Shown here piece by piece: positions 8,490 to 58,590 of a DNA stretch of 64,000 nucleotides; within the stretch, counting starts at the first letter, position 1; each line of letters starts with the position of its first letter. Under the pieces are notes generated by a model. It had not been told where the DNA came from. It searched no databases and was given only the letters and a program-made list of their open reading frames with translations. A program made the translations under genes and the position numbers. Origin of the DNA: Planctomycetota bacterium (GTDB lineage: Bacteria > Planctomycetota > Planctomycetia > Pirellulales > Pirellulaceae); contig VGZA01000026.1 in the NCBI GenBank assembly GCA_016872775.1, positions 11,821-75,820 of the forward strand, read 5' to 3'.

Positions 8490-8662
8490 CGCCGAACCCG
8501 ACTTCAAAAGATGGCGTTGGACGGCGTAGGACGAGCGTAGGACGAGCCGCCAGGCCCGTCCAGAAGTGCGAAACGACTTCGATAAAAAGAACAATCATGT
8601 TCGATCGAGCGCGAGAGACGGGTCTGGAGACCCGTCCTACCTACTGCCGGGAGCGTTTGAGG

Positions 8663-35816: not shown

Positions 35817-35872
35817 TAGGACGGACATCCTGTTCGTCCGGGAAGGCTTAGACGGACAGGATGTCCGTCCTA
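35817..35872. repeat. 17-bp perfect inverted repeat TAGGACGGACATCCTGT ... ACAGGATGTCCGTCCTA with a 22-nt spacer, containing the inner hairpin GACGGAC-AGGAT-GTCCGTC.
   Basis: Read directly. It sits 3' of the secreted-protein gene and 5' of guaA. Confidence 0.6.
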
Positions 35873-35966
35873 CATAAAAAGGGGCACTGGTTCTGTCCGT
35901 CCATCGACCCTATAATCTTCAGGCTTAACTTCCCGCTGTTTTCCGCAGCGGGCTTTTTGTTTACGG

Positions 35967-40001: not shown

Positions 40002-40238
40002 ATGCGCGTCCATCTCAAATACTGTGCAGCTTGAGGCTACGAACGGCAAGCGGTCAGTTTGACCGCCCGCATTCTTACCGAGTTCAAGCAGCAAATCACC
40101 AGTTTCGAACTCGAACCGTCCCGCGGCGGTTGTTTCGAACTCACCGTCAATAACGGCCTGGTCTATTCCAAGCTGGCGACGGGGCAGTTCCCAGACGAGG
40201 AGGAAATGGTCGCTGCCGTTCGCAATCGAATGAAGTGA
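40002..40238 (+). CDS. selW: SelW/Rdx-family selenoprotein (78 aa) with an in-frame UGA (Sec) at 40032..40034.
   Basis: GGAG lies 9 nt upstream of the ATG. Translation reads MRVHLKYCAA-U-GYERQAVSLTARILTEFKQQITSFELEPSRGGCFELTVNNGLVYSKLATGQFPDEEEMVAAVRNRMK*. The Y-C-x-x-U-G-Y redox motif and the GG.FE..VNG.L.(W)SK...G.FP tail match SelW-like proteins. The ORF track misses it because of the TGA. Confidence 0.7.
40050..40066 (+). other. SECIS-like hairpin GCGGTCA-GUU-UGACCGC, 16 nt 3' of the UGA.
   Basis: A perfect 7-bp stem is read directly. The apical loop contains G and U, and the position fits bacterial SECIS spacing. Confidence 0.45.
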
Positions 40239-40330
40239 AGATCGACGACGTGTCGATCGCAAAACTGGATCAGAATATGGAACATGACGCAAGGCAGAAA
40301 GGTGTGGGGCATGGTGGGTCCTGCGTGTAG

Positions 40331-40420
40331 GGCGAAACTTGTTTCGCGGGACTTGTGATGCGAAACTTGTTGCGCGGGACAGGTCACGAAACAAGTTTCG
40401 TGTTACGTAGCGCGAAACCC
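40331..40420. repeat. Cluster of 3-4 copies of a palindromic element with core CGAAACTTGTTTCG (two direct 21-mers GCGAAACTTGTTTCGCGGGAC, one inverted copy, one partial).
   Basis: Copies are read at 40331..40352, 40360..40380 and 40385..40402 (inverted), plus a partial copy at 40410..40420. Confidence 0.7.
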
Positions 40421-40421
40421 T

Positions 40422-40679
40422 CTAGAATTCATCTTCTTGTCCGATGCCGCCCTGCCAGGCTTCGAGTGCCGCGAGCACGGCGTCGCGTTCTTGGCGGTTA
40501 GCCCAGACCGATTCATCCTGTTCCAGGCGAACTTCATACAGGCCTTCGCACTGGCATTCTTCATCGCCACAGAAATGGGGCACGGCGGCAATCCACATCA
40601 CGCGATAAAGGGGCACGTGTTTGTCGTCGACGAGGCAGAAAATCGATCGCGACTTCTCACCGCCGTTATCGTTCGCCAT
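40422..40679 (-). CDS. Small hypothetical Cys-containing protein (85 aa) downstream of proC.
   Basis: Track ORF containing CGDEECQCEG. It lies 10 nt after proC. Confidence 0.4.
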   Translation of the reverse strand: MANDNGGEKSRSIFCLVDDKHVPLYRVMWIAAVPHFCGDEECQCEGLYEVRLEQDESVWANRQERDAVLAALEAWQGGIGQEDEF

Positions 40680-40688
40680 GATTCGGTC

Positions 40689-41504
40689 TCACTGTTTCTG
40701 GCCCAATTCCTGCGATCGCCGCGTGGCTGCTACCACAGCCGCCATAAGTCCGCTGCGAATGCCGTGATCTTCTAGCGCCTGTAAGCCTGCGATTGTCGTG
40801 CCACCGGGACTAGCGACACGATCCTTAAGTATTCCCGGATGTTCGCCGGTGGCAAGGACCATTTCGGCCGCGCCGGCGACCGTCTGGGCGGCGAGCTGCG
40901 TGGCGACGTCGCGCGGCAGTCCCACCCGCACCCCGCCGTCACTCAACGCCTCGATCATCACGTAAACAAATGCCGGACCGCTGCCCGAAAGGCCGGTGAC
41001 CGCGTCCAGCAGCGATTCGTCAAGCCGATACGTGCCTCCGACGGCCCGCAACATCGAATCGACCCAAACGGCGTCGTCGGCGGTGGCAGCCGCCCCTAAA
41101 CTGTAGGCCGACGCCCCCTGTCCGACCAAGCACGGTGTGTTCGGCATGACGCGGATCACACGCTGGATGCCGCTTTCCGCAGCCAGTCTGGCAAGCGTCA
41201 CACCGGCGGCGACACTGATCAGCAGGTGCCGCGCGGTCAGCACCGGTTTCAGTTCGGCGAGCACCACCGGAATCTGCAGCGGCTTGACCGCCAGAATGAT
41301 CACCTGGCAATGCTGGGCAAGTTGACTGTTGCCCGCCATGAGGCGACAACCCGGCACAATCGAAGCAAAAGTGCCGACAGCGTCCTGCGAGGTATCATAA
41401 GCGGCGATACGTTCCGCCGGGACGAGACCGGCATCGACGATGCCGCGTGCCAGGGCGCGCGCCATTTGCCCGGCGCCAACAAATCCGATCATCTCGTTTG
41501 GCAT
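40689..41504 (-). CDS. proC: Pyrroline-5-carboxylate reductase.
   Basis: MPNEMIGFVGAGQMARALARG, LAVKPLQIPVVLAEL and SPGGTTIAGL are ProC motifs. Start chosen at ATG 41504. Confidence 0.9.
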   Translation of the reverse strand: MPNEMIGFVGAGQMARALARGIVDAGLVPAERIAAYDTSQDAVGTFASIVPGCRLMAGNSQLAQHCQVIILAVKPLQIPVVLAELKPVLTARHLLISVAAGVTLARLAAESGIQRVIRVMPNTPCLVGQGASAYSLGAAATADDAVWVDSMLRAVGGTYRLDESLLDAVTGLSGSGPAFVYVMIEALSDGGVRVGLPRDVATQLAAQTVAGAAEMVLATGEHPGILKDRVASPGGTTIAGLQALEDHGIRSGLMAAVVAATRRSQELGQKQ

Positions 41505-41748
41505 TCCAGTTCCCGCAGTTAATTCTGGCCGCCCCCATGCTAAGTCATCCCCCCACCGGCTGCAAGACGCAAAGTGCCGCACTGGCCGTCGCCCGGCGGG
41601 TCCGCGAAAAATCTGGGCTTTACGCCTACGCCATTTTTTGGCAAACTCCCGCCGCTTTTCCCGGAACGATCGATTCCCAATTCAGGCCGGCGGCCAGACC
41701 AGGCCGCACGTGCGGAAACTGAAATCTCGGCAGGAAGGAGCTTGGACC

Positions 41749-42249
41749 ATGTCTTTCGCCCCGTCGCTGACGCGCAAACTCGCCATGGCCGCCGCACTCG
41801 TTTTCGCGGCGGGATTTACCACGGATGGCCGCCTGCAGGCCGATGACGGCTGGAAATTCCCGAATTTGAATCCGTTCAAGAAGTCGGAAGAGACCGGTTC
41901 GGCGGGCAAAAAGAAAACCTCCGCGAAATTCAGCGACAAGAACCAAGACAGCTCCTGGAAATGGTGGGGCTCAACAAAAGACGCCTCGAGATCACGAGCG
42001 GCCGAGCCGTCGACATGGGACAAGATGAGTTCCGGAACGAAATCGCTGATGGCGAAAACCAAATCGGCGATCACTCCTTGGAAGTCAGAGGAGACAACAA
42101 CCAAGCGTCCCGCGACCGGCACCAATCGGTTGGTGTCGAAGAAAAAGCAGGAAAAATCGAGCTGGCTGCCGACCTGGAAAACGGAAAAGGAATCATCGGA
42201 TGGCCCCAGGACATTATCGGACTGGGTCGGCCTGCCCAAACCGGAGTGA
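41749..42249 (+). CDS. Secreted Lys/Ser/Thr/Trp-rich hypothetical protein.
   Basis: AGGAAGGAG RBS. The signal peptide is MSFAPSLTRKLAMAAALVFAAGF. A W-x-K motif recurs (SSWKWW, STWDKM, TPWKSE, SSWLPTWKTE). Confidence 0.5.
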   Translation: MSFAPSLTRKLAMAAALVFAAGFTTDGRLQADDGWKFPNLNPFKKSEETGSAGKKKTSAKFSDKNQDSSWKWWGSTKDASRSRAAEPSTWDKMSSGTKSLMAKTKSAITPWKSEETTTKRPATGTNRLVSKKKQEKSSWLPTWKTEKESSDGPRTLSDWVGLPKPE

Positions 42250-42333
42250 CCGGTCGATTTCGCAATGAGACCAGGCGGGCCCCGTTCGTCGCGTCGTCGC
42301 CGCCGGGCCTGTTTTTCGCTACAATAGTCGATC

Positions 42334-44250
42334 ATGGCGATCGACCTGATTCTGGGAACCGCGGGCCACATCGATCACGGAAAGACCTCGTTGATCCGTG
42401 CGCTGACCGGTACCGACCCGGACCGACTGCCCGAGGAAAAACGCCGGGGGATCACGATCGACATCGGCTTCGCCCATCTCGACCTGGGCGCGTATCGGCT
42501 TGGAATCGTCGACGTACCGGGTCACGAGCGTTTTGTCCGCAACATGCTGGCCGGCGCCACCGGAATGGACCTGGCGATGCTGGTGGTGGCTGCCGACGAT
42601 TCGATCAAGCCGCAGACGCTGGAACACCTCGAAATTCTCCGTTTGCTGAAGCTGCCAGCTGGCGTGATCGTATTGACCAAGTCGGACATGGTGGATGCGG
42701 AATGGCTCGATCTGGTCGAGAGTGAAATCCGTGAACTGGTGGCCGGTACGTTCCTGGAATCGGCTCCGATTGTGCGGACGAGCATCGTCCGCAATTCCGG
42801 GTTTGACGAGCTGAAATCGGCGCTGCGTGTTGCGGCGGAGCGTGCCGCCGTGGCGCGCGGGCAAACCGACTCGAATAACCCGTTCCGCATGGCGATCGAC
42901 CGCGTATTCACTCTGGCGGGGCACGGGACGGTCGTCACCGGAAGCGTGAGCAGCGGCAGCTGTGCGACCGGGGACGAACTGCACCTGGAACCGGGCAGCA
43001 TTCCGGTTCGGGTACGGGGTATTGAGAACCATGACCACAGCGTTGAACGGGTGGTGCGCGGGCAACGAGCGGCGATCAATCTGGTAGGCGTCCATCACGA
43101 GCAGGTCCACCGCGGGCATGAGCTGGCGACACCGGGCCATTTGCGTTCCAGCCGCGTGTTAACGGTTCAGTTTACGTTGCTGCCGACCGCCGCGCATCCG
43201 CTGAAGAGCCGACAACGCGTACGACTGCACGTGGGAACAGCCGAAATCCTCGCGTCGGTAATGCTGCTCGACCGCGACCGGTTGGAACCGGGCGAATTGG
43301 GCTCCCTGCAGCTGTTTCTGCTGCAGGGAGCGGCCACGACCTGGGGACAGCCGTTCGTCTTACGCAGCGAATCGCCGGTAATCACGATCGGCGGCGGAAG
43401 GGTGCTCGATCCCGATGCCGAACGGTTGCGCCGACCTGATGCGGACACGCTCGAACAAGTTCGCTCGCTCAGCAGCGACGAGCCTTTGGTACGTGCTGGA
43501 GCGGCGTTGTTCCTGGCCGGATTTCGTGACTGGCGTCCCGACGACTGGCAGCGGTCGGCCGGCATCACAGCCACCGCGCCGGTTTACGACGCCTTGAAAG
43601 GTCGAGGAGACGTCATTGAAATCCCCCTGTCGCCGACCCGAAATTGGCGGGGCCACCGACTCGTGCTCGACCGACTTTGCGACCGGATCGCCGCCGCGCT
43701 GGAAACGTTGCATCGCCAGAACCCGTTACGCATGACCCTGGACCGTTCGCGTGTCGGCAGCGGATTCGCCTACTTGCCTGACCCGGCCTTGTTTGATGCG
43801 GCACTGGAGCGAATGCGCCGGGCCGGTCGGCTGAGGATCGTCCCGAACGGAATCACGCTGGCGGGACAGGGGCCCAAGTTGTCGGCCAATGAGCAGAAGC
43901 TGTTGACGCAGATTGTCGACCAGTATCGTGCGGCCGGCGTTGAGCCGCCCACGGTTAAAGAACTCCAGGCGCAAACGGTGAAAAATCAAAATGCCGTTCC
44001 GCAACTCGTGTCGCTGGCGGCCGATGACGGGCAGCTGGTCAAGATCAATAACGATTTCTACCTCCATGCCGACGTCGACCGGGAGATTCGCGAGAAGCTA
44101 CGGCCGCAGTTGGCCGACCAGGGCCTGACGGTCAGCCAGATCCGGGAGTTGCTCGGGACCTCGCGCAAGTACGCCTTGCCCCTTTGCGAACATTTCGACA
44201 AGGTCGGATTCACGCGCCGTCTGGGCGATGTACGATATCTTGGGAGTTAA
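42334..44250 (+). CDS. selB: Selenocysteine-specific elongation factor SelB.
   Basis: The EF-Tu-like GTPase starts [34 protein letters not shown] and the C-terminal winged-helix extension are present. Length 638 aa. Confidence 0.9.
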
Positions 44251-44294
44251 CCAGCGACGCGTCAGCGAACCTGTCGTAGAAAGGTCACCCTTCG

Positions 44295-45689
44295 ATGGCA
44301 CCCAACGTGCTTCGCAACATCCCGTCCGTCAACGAATTGCTGGAGAGCCCGCCGCTGCGCGGGCTGGTCGAGCGGGTTAATCGCAACGTGGTGGTGAGCG
44401 GTGTCCGCTCCTTCCTGGACAACCTGCGGGGCGACCTGCAGTCGGTGACCGACTTCCGCGTGCCAACGCCGACCGAATTGGCCGAGACGATTGCGTCCTG
44501 GATCCTGGCCGGCGAGGAACCGCCGCTGCGGCCCGTAATCAATGCCACGGGAGTCCTGCTGCATACCGGGCTGGGCCGAGCGCCCTTGGCGGAAGAAGCG
44601 GTGGCGGCGATGGTGGAAGTCAGCCGCGGCTACGCCAGCGTGGAACTCGACTTGAAATCCGGTGAGCGTTCCCAGCGCATCGTGGCGGTCGAGAAGCTGC
44701 TTTGCCAGGTCACCGGCGCCGAAGCTGCCGTCGTCGTGAATAACAACGCCGGCGCGACTCTGCTGGCCCTGACCGCGTTGGGATTAGGACGGGAAATCAT
44801 CGTCTCCCGCGGGCAGCTGATCGAGATCGGCGGCAGCTATCGCCTGCCCGACATCATGACCGCCAGCGGCGCCCGACTGCGGGAAGTGGGGACGACAAAC
44901 AAGACCCGCATCGCCGATTTCGCCAACGCGATCGGCGAACAGACCGCCGCGATGATGCGGGTGCACACCAGTAACTACGTTGTCTGTGGTTTTACCGAAC
45001 AGCCAACCCTGGAGGAACTCGTCGTGCTGGGCCGGGACAAGAACCTGCCGGTGATCGACGACATTGGGTCCGGTGCTTTGATCGACTTCGCCGAATTCGG
45101 CCTGAAAGGCGAACCGATCGCTTCGCAGAGCGTCGCGACCGGGGCCGACCTGGTGCTGTTCAGCGGCGACAAGCTGCTTGGCGGTCCTCAGTGCGGTGTC
45201 GTCGTCGGCAAACGACGCTGGGTGGACCGATTGAGTAAGCATCCGTTGACCCGCGCGCTGCGTGTCGATAAGGTGACGCTGGCCGGCCTCGCCGCCACGT
45301 TGAGGCTGTATCAGGATCCCGCCAAAGCACGCGAGGCGGTGCCGCTGCTGGCCTTGTTGGGAACGTCGATGGAGAACCTGCATCTGCGGGCGGAACGCAT
45401 CGCTCAAAAACTGGCCGTCGTGCCTGGCGTCCGATCGGCGGCGGTCCAGGAGGGTACCACGTTTCTTGGCGGCGGCTCCATCCCCACCCAACAGATCGGT
45501 ACCTGGTGCGTGGCGATCGAACCTCAGTCGGCGTCAGTCGACCTGTTCGCCAACTCCTTACGCGCCGGGATGCCGGCGGTTGTGGGACGCATCCAGCAGG
45601 GAAAACTGCTGCTCGACCTCCGCTCGGTACTGCCCCGGCAGGACATCGAATTGTCCGACGCCGTCGAAACCGTAACGCGAAACTTGTAG
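44295..45689 (+). CDS. selA: L-seryl-tRNA(Sec) selenium transferase SelA.
   Basis: LRNIPSVNELL...VINATGVLLHTGLGRAPL...GGPQCGVVVGKRRWV...DKVTLAGL matches the SelA family. Length 464 aa. Confidence 0.9.
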   Translation: MAPNVLRNIPSVNELLESPPLRGLVERVNRNVVVSGVRSFLDNLRGDLQSVTDFRVPTPTELAETIASWILAGEEPPLRPVINATGVLLHTGLGRAPLAEEAVAAMVEVSRGYASVELDLKSGERSQRIVAVEKLLCQVTGAEAAVVVNNNAGATLLALTALGLGREIIVSRGQLIEIGGSYRLPDIMTASGARLREVGTTNKTRIADFANAIGEQTAAMMRVHTSNYVVCGFTEQPTLEELVVLGRDKNLPVIDDIGSGALIDFAEFGLKGEPIASQSVATGADLVLFSGDKLLGGPQCGVVVGKRRWVDRLSKHPLTRALRVDKVTLAGLAATLRLYQDPAKAREAVPLLALLGTSMENLHLRAERIAQKLAVVPGVRSAAVQEGTTFLGGGSIPTQQIGTWCVAIEPQSASVDLFANSLRAGMPAVVGRIQQGKLLLDLRSVLPRQDIELSDAVETVTRNL

Positions 45690-45769
45690 CTCGAAACTTG
45701 TTTCGAGTCGCCCTGTCGCGCGGAACTTATTTCGGCTCGACCCTGTCTCGAAACAAGTTTCGAGCTACG
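45677..45769. repeat. Second cluster of the CGAAACTTGTTTCG element, forming 22-bp inverted arms (GTAGCTCGAAACTTGTTTCGAG / CTCGAAACAAGTTTCGAGCTAC) around a 39-nt spacer, plus a degenerate copy.
   Basis: Read directly. The first copy overlaps the selA stop codon. Confidence 0.7.
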
Positions 45770-45802: not shown

Positions 45803-46388
45803 ATGACAATGGGTGCTTCGCGGATTACATGGGAATTCCCATTTGCTTTGTGCGGTTTACTGGCCTCTGCTTTGGGTTGTTCACGGACCGCGATCTTGCC
45901 GCAAGACGGTGCCGTCGCCAAGGATCCGGAGTCGGCGGATCCGCTGCAATTCCGTGGCGCTGAAGCTGGCAATGAACGGTCGATCCAGGGAGTTCGTTTC
46001 TGCTGGTGTCCGTGGGGCAGTTTCCTGATGGGCAGTCCGCCCGGCGAACTTCCAAGGAAAGCCGTATAACGGGGGCGAGCGGGGGCCTGTGCGGGGCGTA
46101 CCGCACCGGTTGGCAGCTACCCGACCAACGCCTGGGCCTGCACGACAGGCATGGGAATGCGTTCGAATGGTGCCGCGACTGGTATCATGCTCGACTCCCG
46201 GGCGGCGTCGACCCGGACCTTTATGCGGCGAAAGCGAGTGCGACCCGCAGCGAGCACGGCCACGGTCCCGGCGCGGCGGATGCTGGGCGGACGATGGTTG
46301 GCCTTGCCGATCCGCTTTTCGGCTGCGATTTGAGCCCGAACGGCGGTACGATCATATCGGTTTTCGCGTCTTGGCGGTCCGAAAATGA
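45803..46388 (+). pseudogene. Decayed formylglycine-generating-enzyme (FGE-sulfatase) family gene with 2 frameshifts and an internal deletion.
   Basis: Three consecutive frames each carry pieces of the FGE domain. The first reads GVRFCWCPWGSFLMGSPPGE, the second YRTGWQLPDQRLGLHDRHGNAFEWCRDWY, and the third RGGCWADD...YDHIGFRVLAVRK. Together they cover only ~195 aa. Confidence 0.6.
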
Positions 46389-46472
46389 CGCCTGCGGCGG
46401 CGCGGCGACCGACCTGTCGCGCCATGGAACCCCTCTGGCTGGGAATATACAGCCGTTGCCGACCGTTCGACA

Positions 46473-47375
46473 ATGACCGGCCATCAGCGCATGCCAATTC
46501 CTCGTTCCTCACATCCTGGTTGGGCTCGTTCGGCCTGCTTCGGCACGTTCATCATGTGCTGTAGTTTCGCCTGTCTGCAACTTTGGGCGGACGAGTCGGC
46601 TCGGGCTAGGCACCAATGGGGCCGTTTTTCGCCCGGCGCGTGGAAGCGGGTCCGGATCCAGACGGAGACGATGGACGAGCGGGGCGGCGTGGCCAGCACG
46701 TCGACCACGGAATCGTTTACAACGCTGACCGACGTCAACGATGCCGATTACACGCTGCGGATCGAAGTCCAGGTGGATGTCAAGGGAAAGCGGTTCTCGG
46801 CCCAGCCGCAGACGATCCGTCAAGGGTATTACGGTGAAACCGAAGGCCAGACGGTGACTGTCCGCAACCTGGGTCCTGTGAGTGTCCTGATCGGGGGTCA
46901 GACGATCCCTAGCGAGACGCAGGAAGTCACGATCCTGGCTCCGAATCTTCGTCGTCAGATGACGATGCAGGTATCGGAACGGGTGCCGTTTGCGGTGCTG
47001 AAACGGGATTGCCGCGCCACCGACGCGGAAGGAAAGCAGGTGAACTATACCACGGCGGTCGAGGTCCTGGCGCTGCAGATGCCGCAGAAGGTCTTGTCGG
47101 AGATTCGCGACACTAGCTACGTCAAAACGGTGCATAAGCAGGGAAAGAACACGGCGATTACGATCGAGATTGAGTGTCTGGAAGTGCCGGGGGGCGTGAT
47201 CGCTCATTCGTTGCGGGAAGAGGACGACAAGGGCCGCCTCCTCCGCAAAAGCACTTTGGAACTCGTCGATTTCGGCCCGGGGGCGGGTAACGCCGAAGAG
47301 ACAACCGCTTCGCATCGGCGCATCCTCAATCGCAGCCGAACACGCAGTAATGACCGGGGAAACCGGACCGAATAG
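46473..47375 (+). CDS. Hypothetical protein (300 aa).
   Basis: Track ORF with protein-like composition. The N-terminus contains a Cys-rich hydrophobic stretch. Confidence 0.45.
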
Positions 47376-58490: not shown

Positions 58491-58590
58491 GGAAGTGCCT
58501 GCACACCTGGTGGTGGCCACAGTCTTCAAAACTGCTGTGCCGTACGATAACCGTGCGGCAGGTGGGTTCGATTCCCATGCACTTCCGCCA
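58491..58590 (+). tRNA. selC: tRNA-Sec (selC), anticodon UCA, with CCA encoded.
   Basis: The 100-nt gene has an 8-bp acceptor stem (GGAAGTGC / GCACTTCC). The anticodon loop is CTTCAAA, identical to E. coli selC. A long extra arm (GCCGTACG-ATAAC-CGTGCGGC, 8 bp) is present. The T-arm is GTGGG-TTCGATT-CCCAT (5 bp), giving the 8/5 bacterial Sec structure. Discriminator G plus CCA at 58588..58590. One irregular position (bulged C) lies in the anticodon stem. Confidence 0.8.

Follow-up and report, generated by a model that had tools for sequence, protein, structure and literature searches.

Repetitive extragenic palindromes (REPs) that carry a GTAG tag have been sorted into 24 families in Proteobacteria, Cyanobacteria, Chloroflexi and the PVC group, including Planctomycetes (Di Nocera, De Gregorio & Rocco 2013, BMC Genomics 14:522; PMC3733652). 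They are short stem-loops located between unidirectional or convergent open reading frames (ORFs), with several families per genome; their termini often provide the TAG stop codon of a flanking ORF, and R. baltica has many tyrosine transposases with flanking repeats (PMC3733652). GTAG and stem-loop together are the recognition determinants of REP-associated tyrosine transposases (RAYTs; Corneloup et al. 2021, NAR 49:6982; PMC8266576), and group-3 REPs combine GTAG with a short perfect palindrome, the REP of S. maltophilia being 23 nt long with an 8-bp stem and a 3-nt loop (PMC8266576). According to the summary in PMC12306157 of work by Liang, Rudd & Deutscher (2015, Mol Cell 58:431), ribosomes stall and translation falls in E. 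coli where a REP lies less than 16 nt from a stop codon. Here we consider a 64,000-nt stretch of contig VGZA01000026.1 (hereafter the window), in which two clusters of a palindromic repeat with the core CGAAACTTGTTTCG lie beside genes for selenocysteine (Sec) use: cluster A past an Rdx-family selenoprotein gene and cluster B at the end of selA. An initial annotation had taken the repeat to occur only 3' of these two genes and had proposed a dimeric protein operator, a hairpin resembling a REP or a miniature inverted-repeat transposable element (MITE), a regulator or terminator common to both loci, or the boundaries of a mobilised module for selenium use. We argue that both clusters are, very probably, places where a dispersed family of GTAG-tagged REPs has inserted in the genome of an uncultured freshwater member of the Planctomycetota, and that their position beside Sec genes is coincidental.

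The repeat unit is 22 nt long and consists of a GTAG (or GTAA) head followed by an 18-nt palindrome, CTCGAAAC-TT-GTTTCGAG. Put differently, the head is followed by two bases, the 14-mer CGAAACTTGTTTCG, and two further bases that pair with the first two; the family consensus, GTAG-CT-CGAAACTTGTTTCG-AG, joins GTAG to an 8-bp perfect palindrome centred on TT. Exact copies of the 14-mer are found at 40333 (+) and 40387 (-) in cluster A and at 45692 (+) and 45749 (-) in cluster B, with a degenerate middle copy in each (40361, one mismatch; 45721, two mismatches). Allowing up to two mismatches, there are 11 matches in the 64-kb window where 0.75 would be expected, a number reached by none of 100 shuffles. 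The sole match outside both clusters (7304, two mismatches) is at chance level, and GAAAC..GTTTC has no further occurrence in the window. The two direct 21-mers that the initial annotation had described as one mismatch and 28 nt apart are indeed there, GCGAAACTTGTTTCGCGGGAC at 40332 and GCGAAACTTGTTGCGCGGGAC at 40360, as are the 22-nt inverted arms of cluster B, which are perfect (45686-45707 and 45747-45768). In terms of units, cluster A comprises two direct units, the second of them decayed, plus one inverted unit and a half-unit stub, and cluster B a stub followed by two direct units, the first matching the consensus and the second decayed, and then an inverted consensus unit (Table 1). Both clusters fold, as had been anticipated, into long RNA hairpins, with a minimum free energy of -45.6 kcal/mol (z -4.4) for A and -50.4 kcal/mol (z -7.6) for B. 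The two are also 70% complementary to each other over 57 nt, because both are composed of the same palindromic units.

What the window cannot reveal is how common the repeat is elsewhere. The window sequence is contained in a 449-kb ENA contig (ERZ27247963, k141_503551) from a metagenome-assembled genome (MAG) of an uncultured planctomycete (NCBI MBM4004006.1) and recurs in the JGI metagenome series Ga0194xxx. When we scanned the metagenome collection with the pattern GTARNNCGAAACTTGTTTCG, at least 91 stretches matched; all family counts given below are among the matches listed. Of these 91 stretches, 73 have a GC content of 0.57-0.64 (window: 0.604) and come from Ga0194xxx or from the sister-species samples Ga0233424/425. 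De-duplication by flanking sequence leaves at least 64 distinct sites, at least 62 of them outside the window, and the true number is larger because the window's own JGI contigs, which carry both clusters, are not among the matches listed. Contigs of 100 kb or more hold at least 17 sites in 1.55 Mb (hand count), compared with two sites in the 64 kb of the window. Tetranucleotide composition of the repeat-bearing loci correlates with that of the window at a median of 0.97 (0.99 when pooled), pieces of the window correlate with each other at 0.97, and unrelated controls matched for GC reach 0.73-0.85. The genes flanking the listed sites include the Planctomycete hallmark families DUF1501, PSCyt2 and DUF1552. 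Restriction of the repeat to the selenoprotein gene and selA, as initially reported, therefore holds within the 64-kb window and breaks down beyond it.

The listed units have the properties of a REP family. Since the search pattern itself demanded GTAR, the head was assessed on 31 units that lay outside the pattern selection: G is present in 27, T in 23 and A in 23 of these, with an exact GTAR in 12, where chance predicts 1 in 128. The two bases immediately flanking the core (positions -1 and +1) form a Watson-Crick pair in 101 of 109 units (T-A 79, G-C 13, A-T 8, C-G 1), a pattern of covariation that favours a hairpin over base-specific recognition of double-stranded DNA. To locate sites relative to genes we relied on a codon-usage gene caller that reproduces the known genes of the window, a test based on the longest stop-free frame being too blunt at 60% GC. 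Fifty-eight of the 64 listed sites are intergenic, even though 81% of random positions are genic; as to flank type, 13 sites fall between two 3' ends, 12 between a 5' and a 3' end and four between two 5' ends. The sites divide into 35 singletons, 15 doublets, 12 triplets and two quadruplets. Spacing between direct neighbours is mostly 19-36 nt, a range into which the 28 nt of cluster A falls, and between inverted neighbours it is 24-111 nt; 17 of the 64 sites, clusters A and B included, contain heads-outward inverted doublets. At 11 of the 64 sites, a confidently called gene ends at the TAG or TAA that the head provides. Ten genes besides selA share this geometry, so that the overlap with the selA stop is a trait of the family. 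A half-unit stub, consisting of head and left arm, lies just upstream of 20 of the 84 perfect units, as it does in cluster B; such stubs may be the footprint of a copying mechanism, for example of a cut or a template switch in the loop. A stem-loop unit, a GTAG head, many dispersed copies and an extragenic location near gene 3' ends are four of the features that define GTAG-tagged REPs and their RAYT systems, and this family has all four; the remaining ones concern the RAYT, to which we return below. Among the options of the initial annotation, it is thus the REP-like hairpin that the data bear out.

A more direct view of the two sites comes from related genomes, where syntenic loci were reached via cluster members of guaA and IMP dehydrogenase. 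The sister lineage is the Ga02334xx organism (L134, L135, L137 and L142), to which a further contig set (L145 and L146) can be added; the genes of these relatives are 79-87% identical to those of the window at the DNA level, and the gene order Rdx-(...)-85 aa-proC-166 aa-selB-selA is kept in the sister lineage. The initial description of cluster A needs some refinement, in that the cluster begins 88 nt past the stop of the Rdx gene and abuts the stop of the convergent 85-aa ORF. Homology with the relative ends exactly at the Rdx stop (40238) and restarts at the stop of the 85-aa ORF (40422). Between these points the window has 183 nt (40239-40421) and the relative 2.8 kb (L134:14246-17084) that contain no unit and encode two proteins, one of 206 aa with leucine-rich repeats and one of 474 aa with PQQ repeats. 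On this alignment, cluster A marks the breakpoint of an insertion or deletion, which may reflect either loss in the window lineage or gain in the relative.

At cluster B, homology ends at 45668. In the relatives, selA finishes with CGG GCC CTC GGC GAG AAG TGA (RALGEK*), in the window with ACC GTA ACG CGA AAC TTG TAG (TVTRNL*), that is, with a half-unit stub and a GTAG head. Because window and relatives diverge from 45669 onwards, we conclude that the repeat overwrote six selA codons and now supplies the stop. The first arm indeed overlaps the selA stop, as had been noted (TAG at 45687-45689), and the cluster as a whole extends further into the gene than originally drawn, starting at 45669. Comparing the filled with the empty site reveals a replacement of sequence with no flanking direct repeat. 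No GTAG hairpin is present in the relatives at the position of either cluster, and the sister lineage carries the CGAAAC family, as we will call it, at many other sites. Occupied sites turn over between lineages, then, while the Sec genes stay, and this effectively rules out a conserved Sec regulator as well as the ends of a mobile Sec module.

How might such a family have spread? Its design, together with published REP/RAYT biology, suggests mobilisation by a RAYT. Imagine a REP-associated tyrosine (HUH/Y1) transposase that recognises GTAG head and stem-loop jointly and, acting in trans, cuts and copies hairpin units while they are single-stranded. Copies would then survive selection where they disturb least, for the most part directly beyond the 3' ends of genes. 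As possible side effects, the Rdx and selA transcripts would end in stable mRNA hairpins and, given that hairpin B starts at the selA stop, translation of SelA would be dampened by analogy with E. coli REPs. The sister lineage does encode a genuine RAYT, which a search with E. coli RayT recovered in full length at L107:6727-7476(-) (E 1.5e-41 by phmmer; E 2.6e-51 for the NCBIfam equivalog REP_Tyr_transpos). RAYT homologues number 4,763 at E<=1e-20, the few with a source name being Planctomycete MAGs.

Several observations nonetheless weigh against our interpretation. The direct flanks of the RAYT at L107 are arrays of a different GTAG-headed repeat, GTAGGGTGGGTCGAGGTACTCCGAGGCCCACC, and a second RAYT, at L148 and 73% identical to the first, is flanked by that same family; the neighbourhood search, which covered ~0.8 Mb of sequence and in which L107 and L148 were examined, turned up no RAYT flanked by the CGAAAC family. 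We infer that the other sites belong to the window's genome or clade on the strength of sample origin, GC, tetranucleotide composition and hallmark genes rather than of a closed genome. A scan of GTDB-representative genomes with GTARNNCGAAACTTGTTTCG returned 23 single matches in unrelated taxa against ~35 expected by chance (hand calculation) and did not recover the window locus; the source species consequently lies outside that collection, and the scan is uninformative on copy number. Finally, both window sites occupy gaps that touch Sec-related genes, which has a naive probability of ~0.02, albeit one calculated post hoc. This last figure is outweighed by the comparison with relatives.

Taken at face value, the placement would point to a Sec-specific cis-element that keeps selB-selA in step with the selenoprotein gene, whether as the palindromic operator of some dimeric regulator or as a terminator common to both loci. 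The motif does occur at only two places in the window, and its GAAAC-TT-GTTTC half-sites are perfectly symmetric. However, no SelA, SelB, Rdx or tRNA-Sec was found near the 62 other sites listed. Homologues of SelA, SelB and Rdx are absent from a six-frame translation of the listed repeat-bearing loci, ARAGORN found three tRNA-Pro and no tRNA-Sec in 641 kb of window-like GC from these loci, and the 70 flanking genes at listed sites belong to 70 unrelated Pfam families, with no Sec-related family among those shown. The motif is abundant, dispersed and intergenic, which is the outcome that the initial annotation itself had named as refuting a link with Sec genes. Both clusters, moreover, lie 3' of genes and not at promoters, the syntenic sister lineage keeps all of its Sec genes without either of them, and a stem-flank pair that covaries over four pair types fits base-pairing better than base-specific protein contacts. 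We therefore regard a Sec-specific element of this kind as very improbable, and the operator, like the shared regulator or terminator, has to be given up. More narrowly defined candidates fare no better. No T-tract follows either hairpin (the tails are GTTACGTAGCGCG and GTCCCCCATCG) and no terminator-like call was made, so that an intrinsic (Rho-independent) terminator lacks its T run. Selenocysteine insertion sequences, SelB-binding hairpins and SelB autoregulation are out by position, cluster A starting past the stop of the selenoprotein gene, far from its UGA, and selA having no UGA codon. A transcription-factor operator is at odds with sites that are mostly at 3' ends, with orthologous loci that have no clusters and with neighbours that are functionally unrelated. 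A search of the window against Rfam detected tRNA-Cys and tRNA-Sec only, with no RNA family at either cluster. Least credible of all is the proposal that a 5.3-kb module for selenium utilisation, proC-selB-selA, was mobilised and has the two clusters as its inverted ends. The clusters do bracket this block and, as described above, resemble each other in inverted orientation, but that complementarity follows from their shared palindromic units, and more than half of the other listed sites are single units. The block sits at the matching place in the sister lineage without the repeats, which answers the kind of comparison that had been suggested as a check and leaves the idea of a mobile module without its footing. 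It includes proC and the opposite-strand 85-aa ORF and excludes both the Rdx gene and tRNA-Sec, beside which the window has no REP unit, and no transposase or integrase is among the genes scanned against Pfam in or beside it. At one site per 32-91 kb, the chance of meeting another site within 5.4 kb is in any case 6-16%, although this figure, too, is post hoc. MITEs and the ends of a composite transposon were set aside on similar grounds: no direct repeat flanks the site at selA, and the sister lineage has the gene block but not the repeats.

A rival with somewhat more to recommend it, though still improbable in our estimation, is that the family is primarily an RNA element of the host, a 3'-end hairpin that stabilises mRNA or attenuates read-through and is kept by selection, not spread by transposition. 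The hairpins are very stable, the listed sites fall mostly into 3'/3' and 5'/3' gaps near stop codons, and such effects are documented for E. coli REPs, as reported in PMC12306157, citing Liang et al. 2015, and in PMC3733652. This account, on the other hand, leaves the conserved single-stranded GTAG head and the half-unit stubs unexplained, and likewise the four listed 5'/5' sites and the turnover of sites between sister lineages with 83-87% identity in their genes; nor is there a T-tract. An RNA role and transposition are not mutually exclusive, and the question raised by this rival is which of the two is primary. Retaining the view of a dispersed REP family, one may go further and ask whether its arrival at selA was neutral. 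By exchanging RALGEK for TVTRNL and placing a 22-bp hairpin stem on the stop, the insertion might throttle SelA output through ribosome stalling at termination, and the family, having no RAYT of its own, might spread by borrowing that of a co-resident GTAG family, with half-unit stubs ending in ...ACTT(G) marking the point of loop cleavage or template switching. We consider this extended scenario a long shot.

The analysis serves mainly to close a misleading trail, since neither a regulator or terminator dedicated to selenium genes nor a mobile Sec module is present here. In its place stands a GTAG-tagged REP family, accompanied by two co-resident families and by a RAYT, of an uncultured lake Planctomycete, a member of a phylum for which such repeats have been reported and little described, along with one clean pair of filled and empty sites at which a REP overwrote the C-terminus of a gene and its stop codon. 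For annotation, repeats of this kind are useful to recognise, as they explain odd stop-codon overlaps and short spurious ORFs and sit where related genomes differ in gene content.

Table 1. Positions of repeat units, genes and further loci (window numbering unless a locus or site number is given).
Feature	Position	Strand	Details
Cluster A	40327..40418	.	composite REP cluster (similar to bacterial interspersed mosaic elements, BIMEs, or REP doublets forming hairpins, REPINs), between Rdx gene stop (40238) and convergent 85-aa ORF stop (40422)
Unit A1	40327..40348	+	GTAG-GG-CGAAACTTGTTTCG-CG, exact core; sequence match
Unit A2	40355..40376	+	GTGA-TG-CGAAACTTGTTGCG-CG, one core mismatch, decayed head; sequence match
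Unit A3	40385..40406	-	minus-strand GTAA-CA-CGAAACTTGTTTCG-TG, exact core, inverted partner of A1; sequence match, inverted repeat, fold
Stub A4	40407..40418	+	half-unit GTAG-CG-CGAAAC, head and left arm only
Cluster B	45669..45768	.	composite REP cluster replacing selA 3' end and most of the spacer to the next gene; homology with sister lineages ends at 45668
Stub B0	45672..45685	+	half-unit GTAA-CG-CGAAACTT, codes for part of the new SelA C-terminus (TVTRNL*); 94% complementary to A3 tail
Unit B1	45686..45707	+	GTAG-CT-CGAAACTTGTTTCG-AG, family consensus; TAG of head (45687-45689) is the selA stop
Unit B2	45715..45736	+	degenerate GTCG-CG-CGGAACTTATTTCG-GC, two core mismatches; strain polymorphism G/A at 45735
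Unit B3	45747..45768	-	minus-strand consensus unit, perfect 22-nt inverted partner of B1
Repeat-derived last six selA codons and stop	45669..45689	+	comparison with relatives
guaA and ABC-F gene			in the window, near the Rdx gene
Rdx-family selenoprotein gene	40002-40238		UGA 40032-40034, stop 40236-40238; Pfam E 3.4e-20
Convergent 85-aa ORF	40422-40679	-
proC		-	beyond the 85-aa ORF
166-aa ORF			between proC and selB
selB	42334-44250
selA	44295-45689		stop TAG 45687-45689
tRNA-Sec	58491-58590
Half-unit stubs (examples)	45672-45685, 40407-40418; S001, S009, S010, S011, S012, S028, S044, S051, S061, S074
Second family, GTAGGGTGGGTCGAGGTACTCCGAGGCCCACC	L107:6200-8110; also L055, L057, L060, L079, L084, L100, L104, L112, L148		around RAYT gene at L107:6727-7284, minus strand
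Third family	8617-8640, 35851-35873; also L084, L088, L100, L112, L118, L119	- (window copies)
Periodic low-GC matches	L041:3835-4586; L061:138-485 with L047; L027:1097-1608
G-rich tandem repeats	L134:14250-14280; flanks of S003 (L033) and S030 (L067)

Some further observations concern the clusters and their surroundings. Two strain single-nucleotide polymorphisms in the Logan assemblies, both G/A, fall within the repeats, one in cluster B's loop (45735) and the other in cluster A's stub (40414); across 21 kb, window and ENA contig differ at three positions. Assemblies built with k=31 stop 18 nt past selA because of the polymorphism at 45735, and we discarded these contig breaks as evidence for a repeat. 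Downstream of selA, a gene for an FGE-sulfatase-family lipoprotein (45804-46476) has a split frame and lacks ~343 nt, not a multiple of three, relative to the sister lineage: window 45974-46047 aligns with L142 4087-4160, after which window 46044 aligns with L142 4504. In the window this gene is probably a pseudogene. Between selA and the tRNA-Sec gene, which follows 12.8 kb downstream, are unrelated housekeeping genes for IMP dehydrogenase (IMPDH), YjeF_N, a DAC-domain protein, SurE and enolase. Stubs of the CGAAAC family consist of GTAG, two bases and CGAAAC, usually ending ...ACTT(G) in the loop, and are found directly 5' of full units, sometimes in tandem. The 28-nt spacing of cluster A might recall a small array of clustered regularly interspaced short palindromic repeats (CRISPR), a candidate that fails because the units are palindromes of 14-22 nt in mixed orientation with spacings of 19-58 nt at other sites. 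Short G-rich tandem repeats (GAACGGG / GGGGAAC runs, CCGCAACCC-type runs) adjoin some REP sites and, in the sister lineage, the Rdx stop.

The co-resident families deserve description in their own right. The repeat that surrounds the RAYTs at L107 and L148 (GTAGGGTGGGTCGAGG...) forms, around the RAYT at L107, REPIN-like units with a period of ~178 nt. We saw it in Ga02334xx loci and one related ENA contig, and in neither the window nor the Ga0194xxx loci; at position 6207 of L107 its head, too, gives the TAG stop of a neighbouring gene. Units of the CGAAAC family are found at L107 only at the edge of the array, where one of them is cut off by an insertion of the GTAGGGTGGGTCGAGGTACTCCGAGGCCCACC family. 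A third GTAG-headed hairpin family (GTAGGACGGGTCTCCNGACCCGTC, GTAGGACGGACATCYTGTCCGTC) is dispersed in both lineages, often as inverted pairs, and because it is present in the window as well, the genome carries several REP families. At L033, a partial Y1 transposase, likewise recovered with the RayT probe, has yet another hairpin family alongside. The RAYT homologues P0013, P0015, P0010 and P0011 come from unrelated samples, have flanks of the second repeat family or yielded no DNA, and no cognate RAYT for the CGAAAC family was recognised among them. The 20-mer search pattern also matched at exact periods in sequence of low GC, with a period of 122 nt (seven copies on a 3.5-Mb contig, locus GC 0.41) and one of 164 nt (contigs including an Acutalibacteraceae MAG); these are tandem repeats of unrelated low-GC organisms and probably match by coincidence.

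Set beside the described systems, the CGAAAC family recalls each of them in part. Like the stop-proximal REPs of E. coli, hairpin B starts at a stop codon, and the same geometry recurs at 11 of the 64 listed sites; the effect on translation has been shown in E. coli only, and the window case is known from its sequence. The 17 listed sites with heads-outward inverted doublets, which fold into one long hairpin, are reminiscent of REPINs (Bertels & Rainey 2011, PLoS Genet 7:e1002132). Unlike REPINs, however, their inverted units are separated by 24-111 nt of unrelated spacer sequence, 35 of the 64 sites are singletons, and no single conserved replicator is evident. As two inverted REPs with a conserved spacer were not seen among the 64 listed sites, we do not assign the family to the REPIN class. 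With the REP of Stenotrophomonas maltophilia, part of a group-3 REPtron, it shares a very similar unit: 22 nt, a GTAG head with CT beside it, and a perfect palindrome of 8 bp closed by a minimal loop. The RAYT gene of a REPtron lies among REPs of its own family, whereas the RAYTs examined here are flanked by another family, the CGAAAC family being known to us as sequence. No described GTAG-REP family was matched to CTCGAAAC-TT-GTTTCGAG; GAAAC/GTTTC is absent from the text of PMC3733652, which gives its consensus sequences in a figure. A further difference lies in the host, an uncultured lake Planctomycete. With GTAG-tagged REPs in general the CGAAAC family nonetheless agrees in being a GTAG-ended stem-loop with many dispersed extragenic copies, single and clustered, that lie mostly between unidirectional or convergent ORFs, lend their TAG to neighbouring genes as a stop codon and coexist with other families of the same kind.

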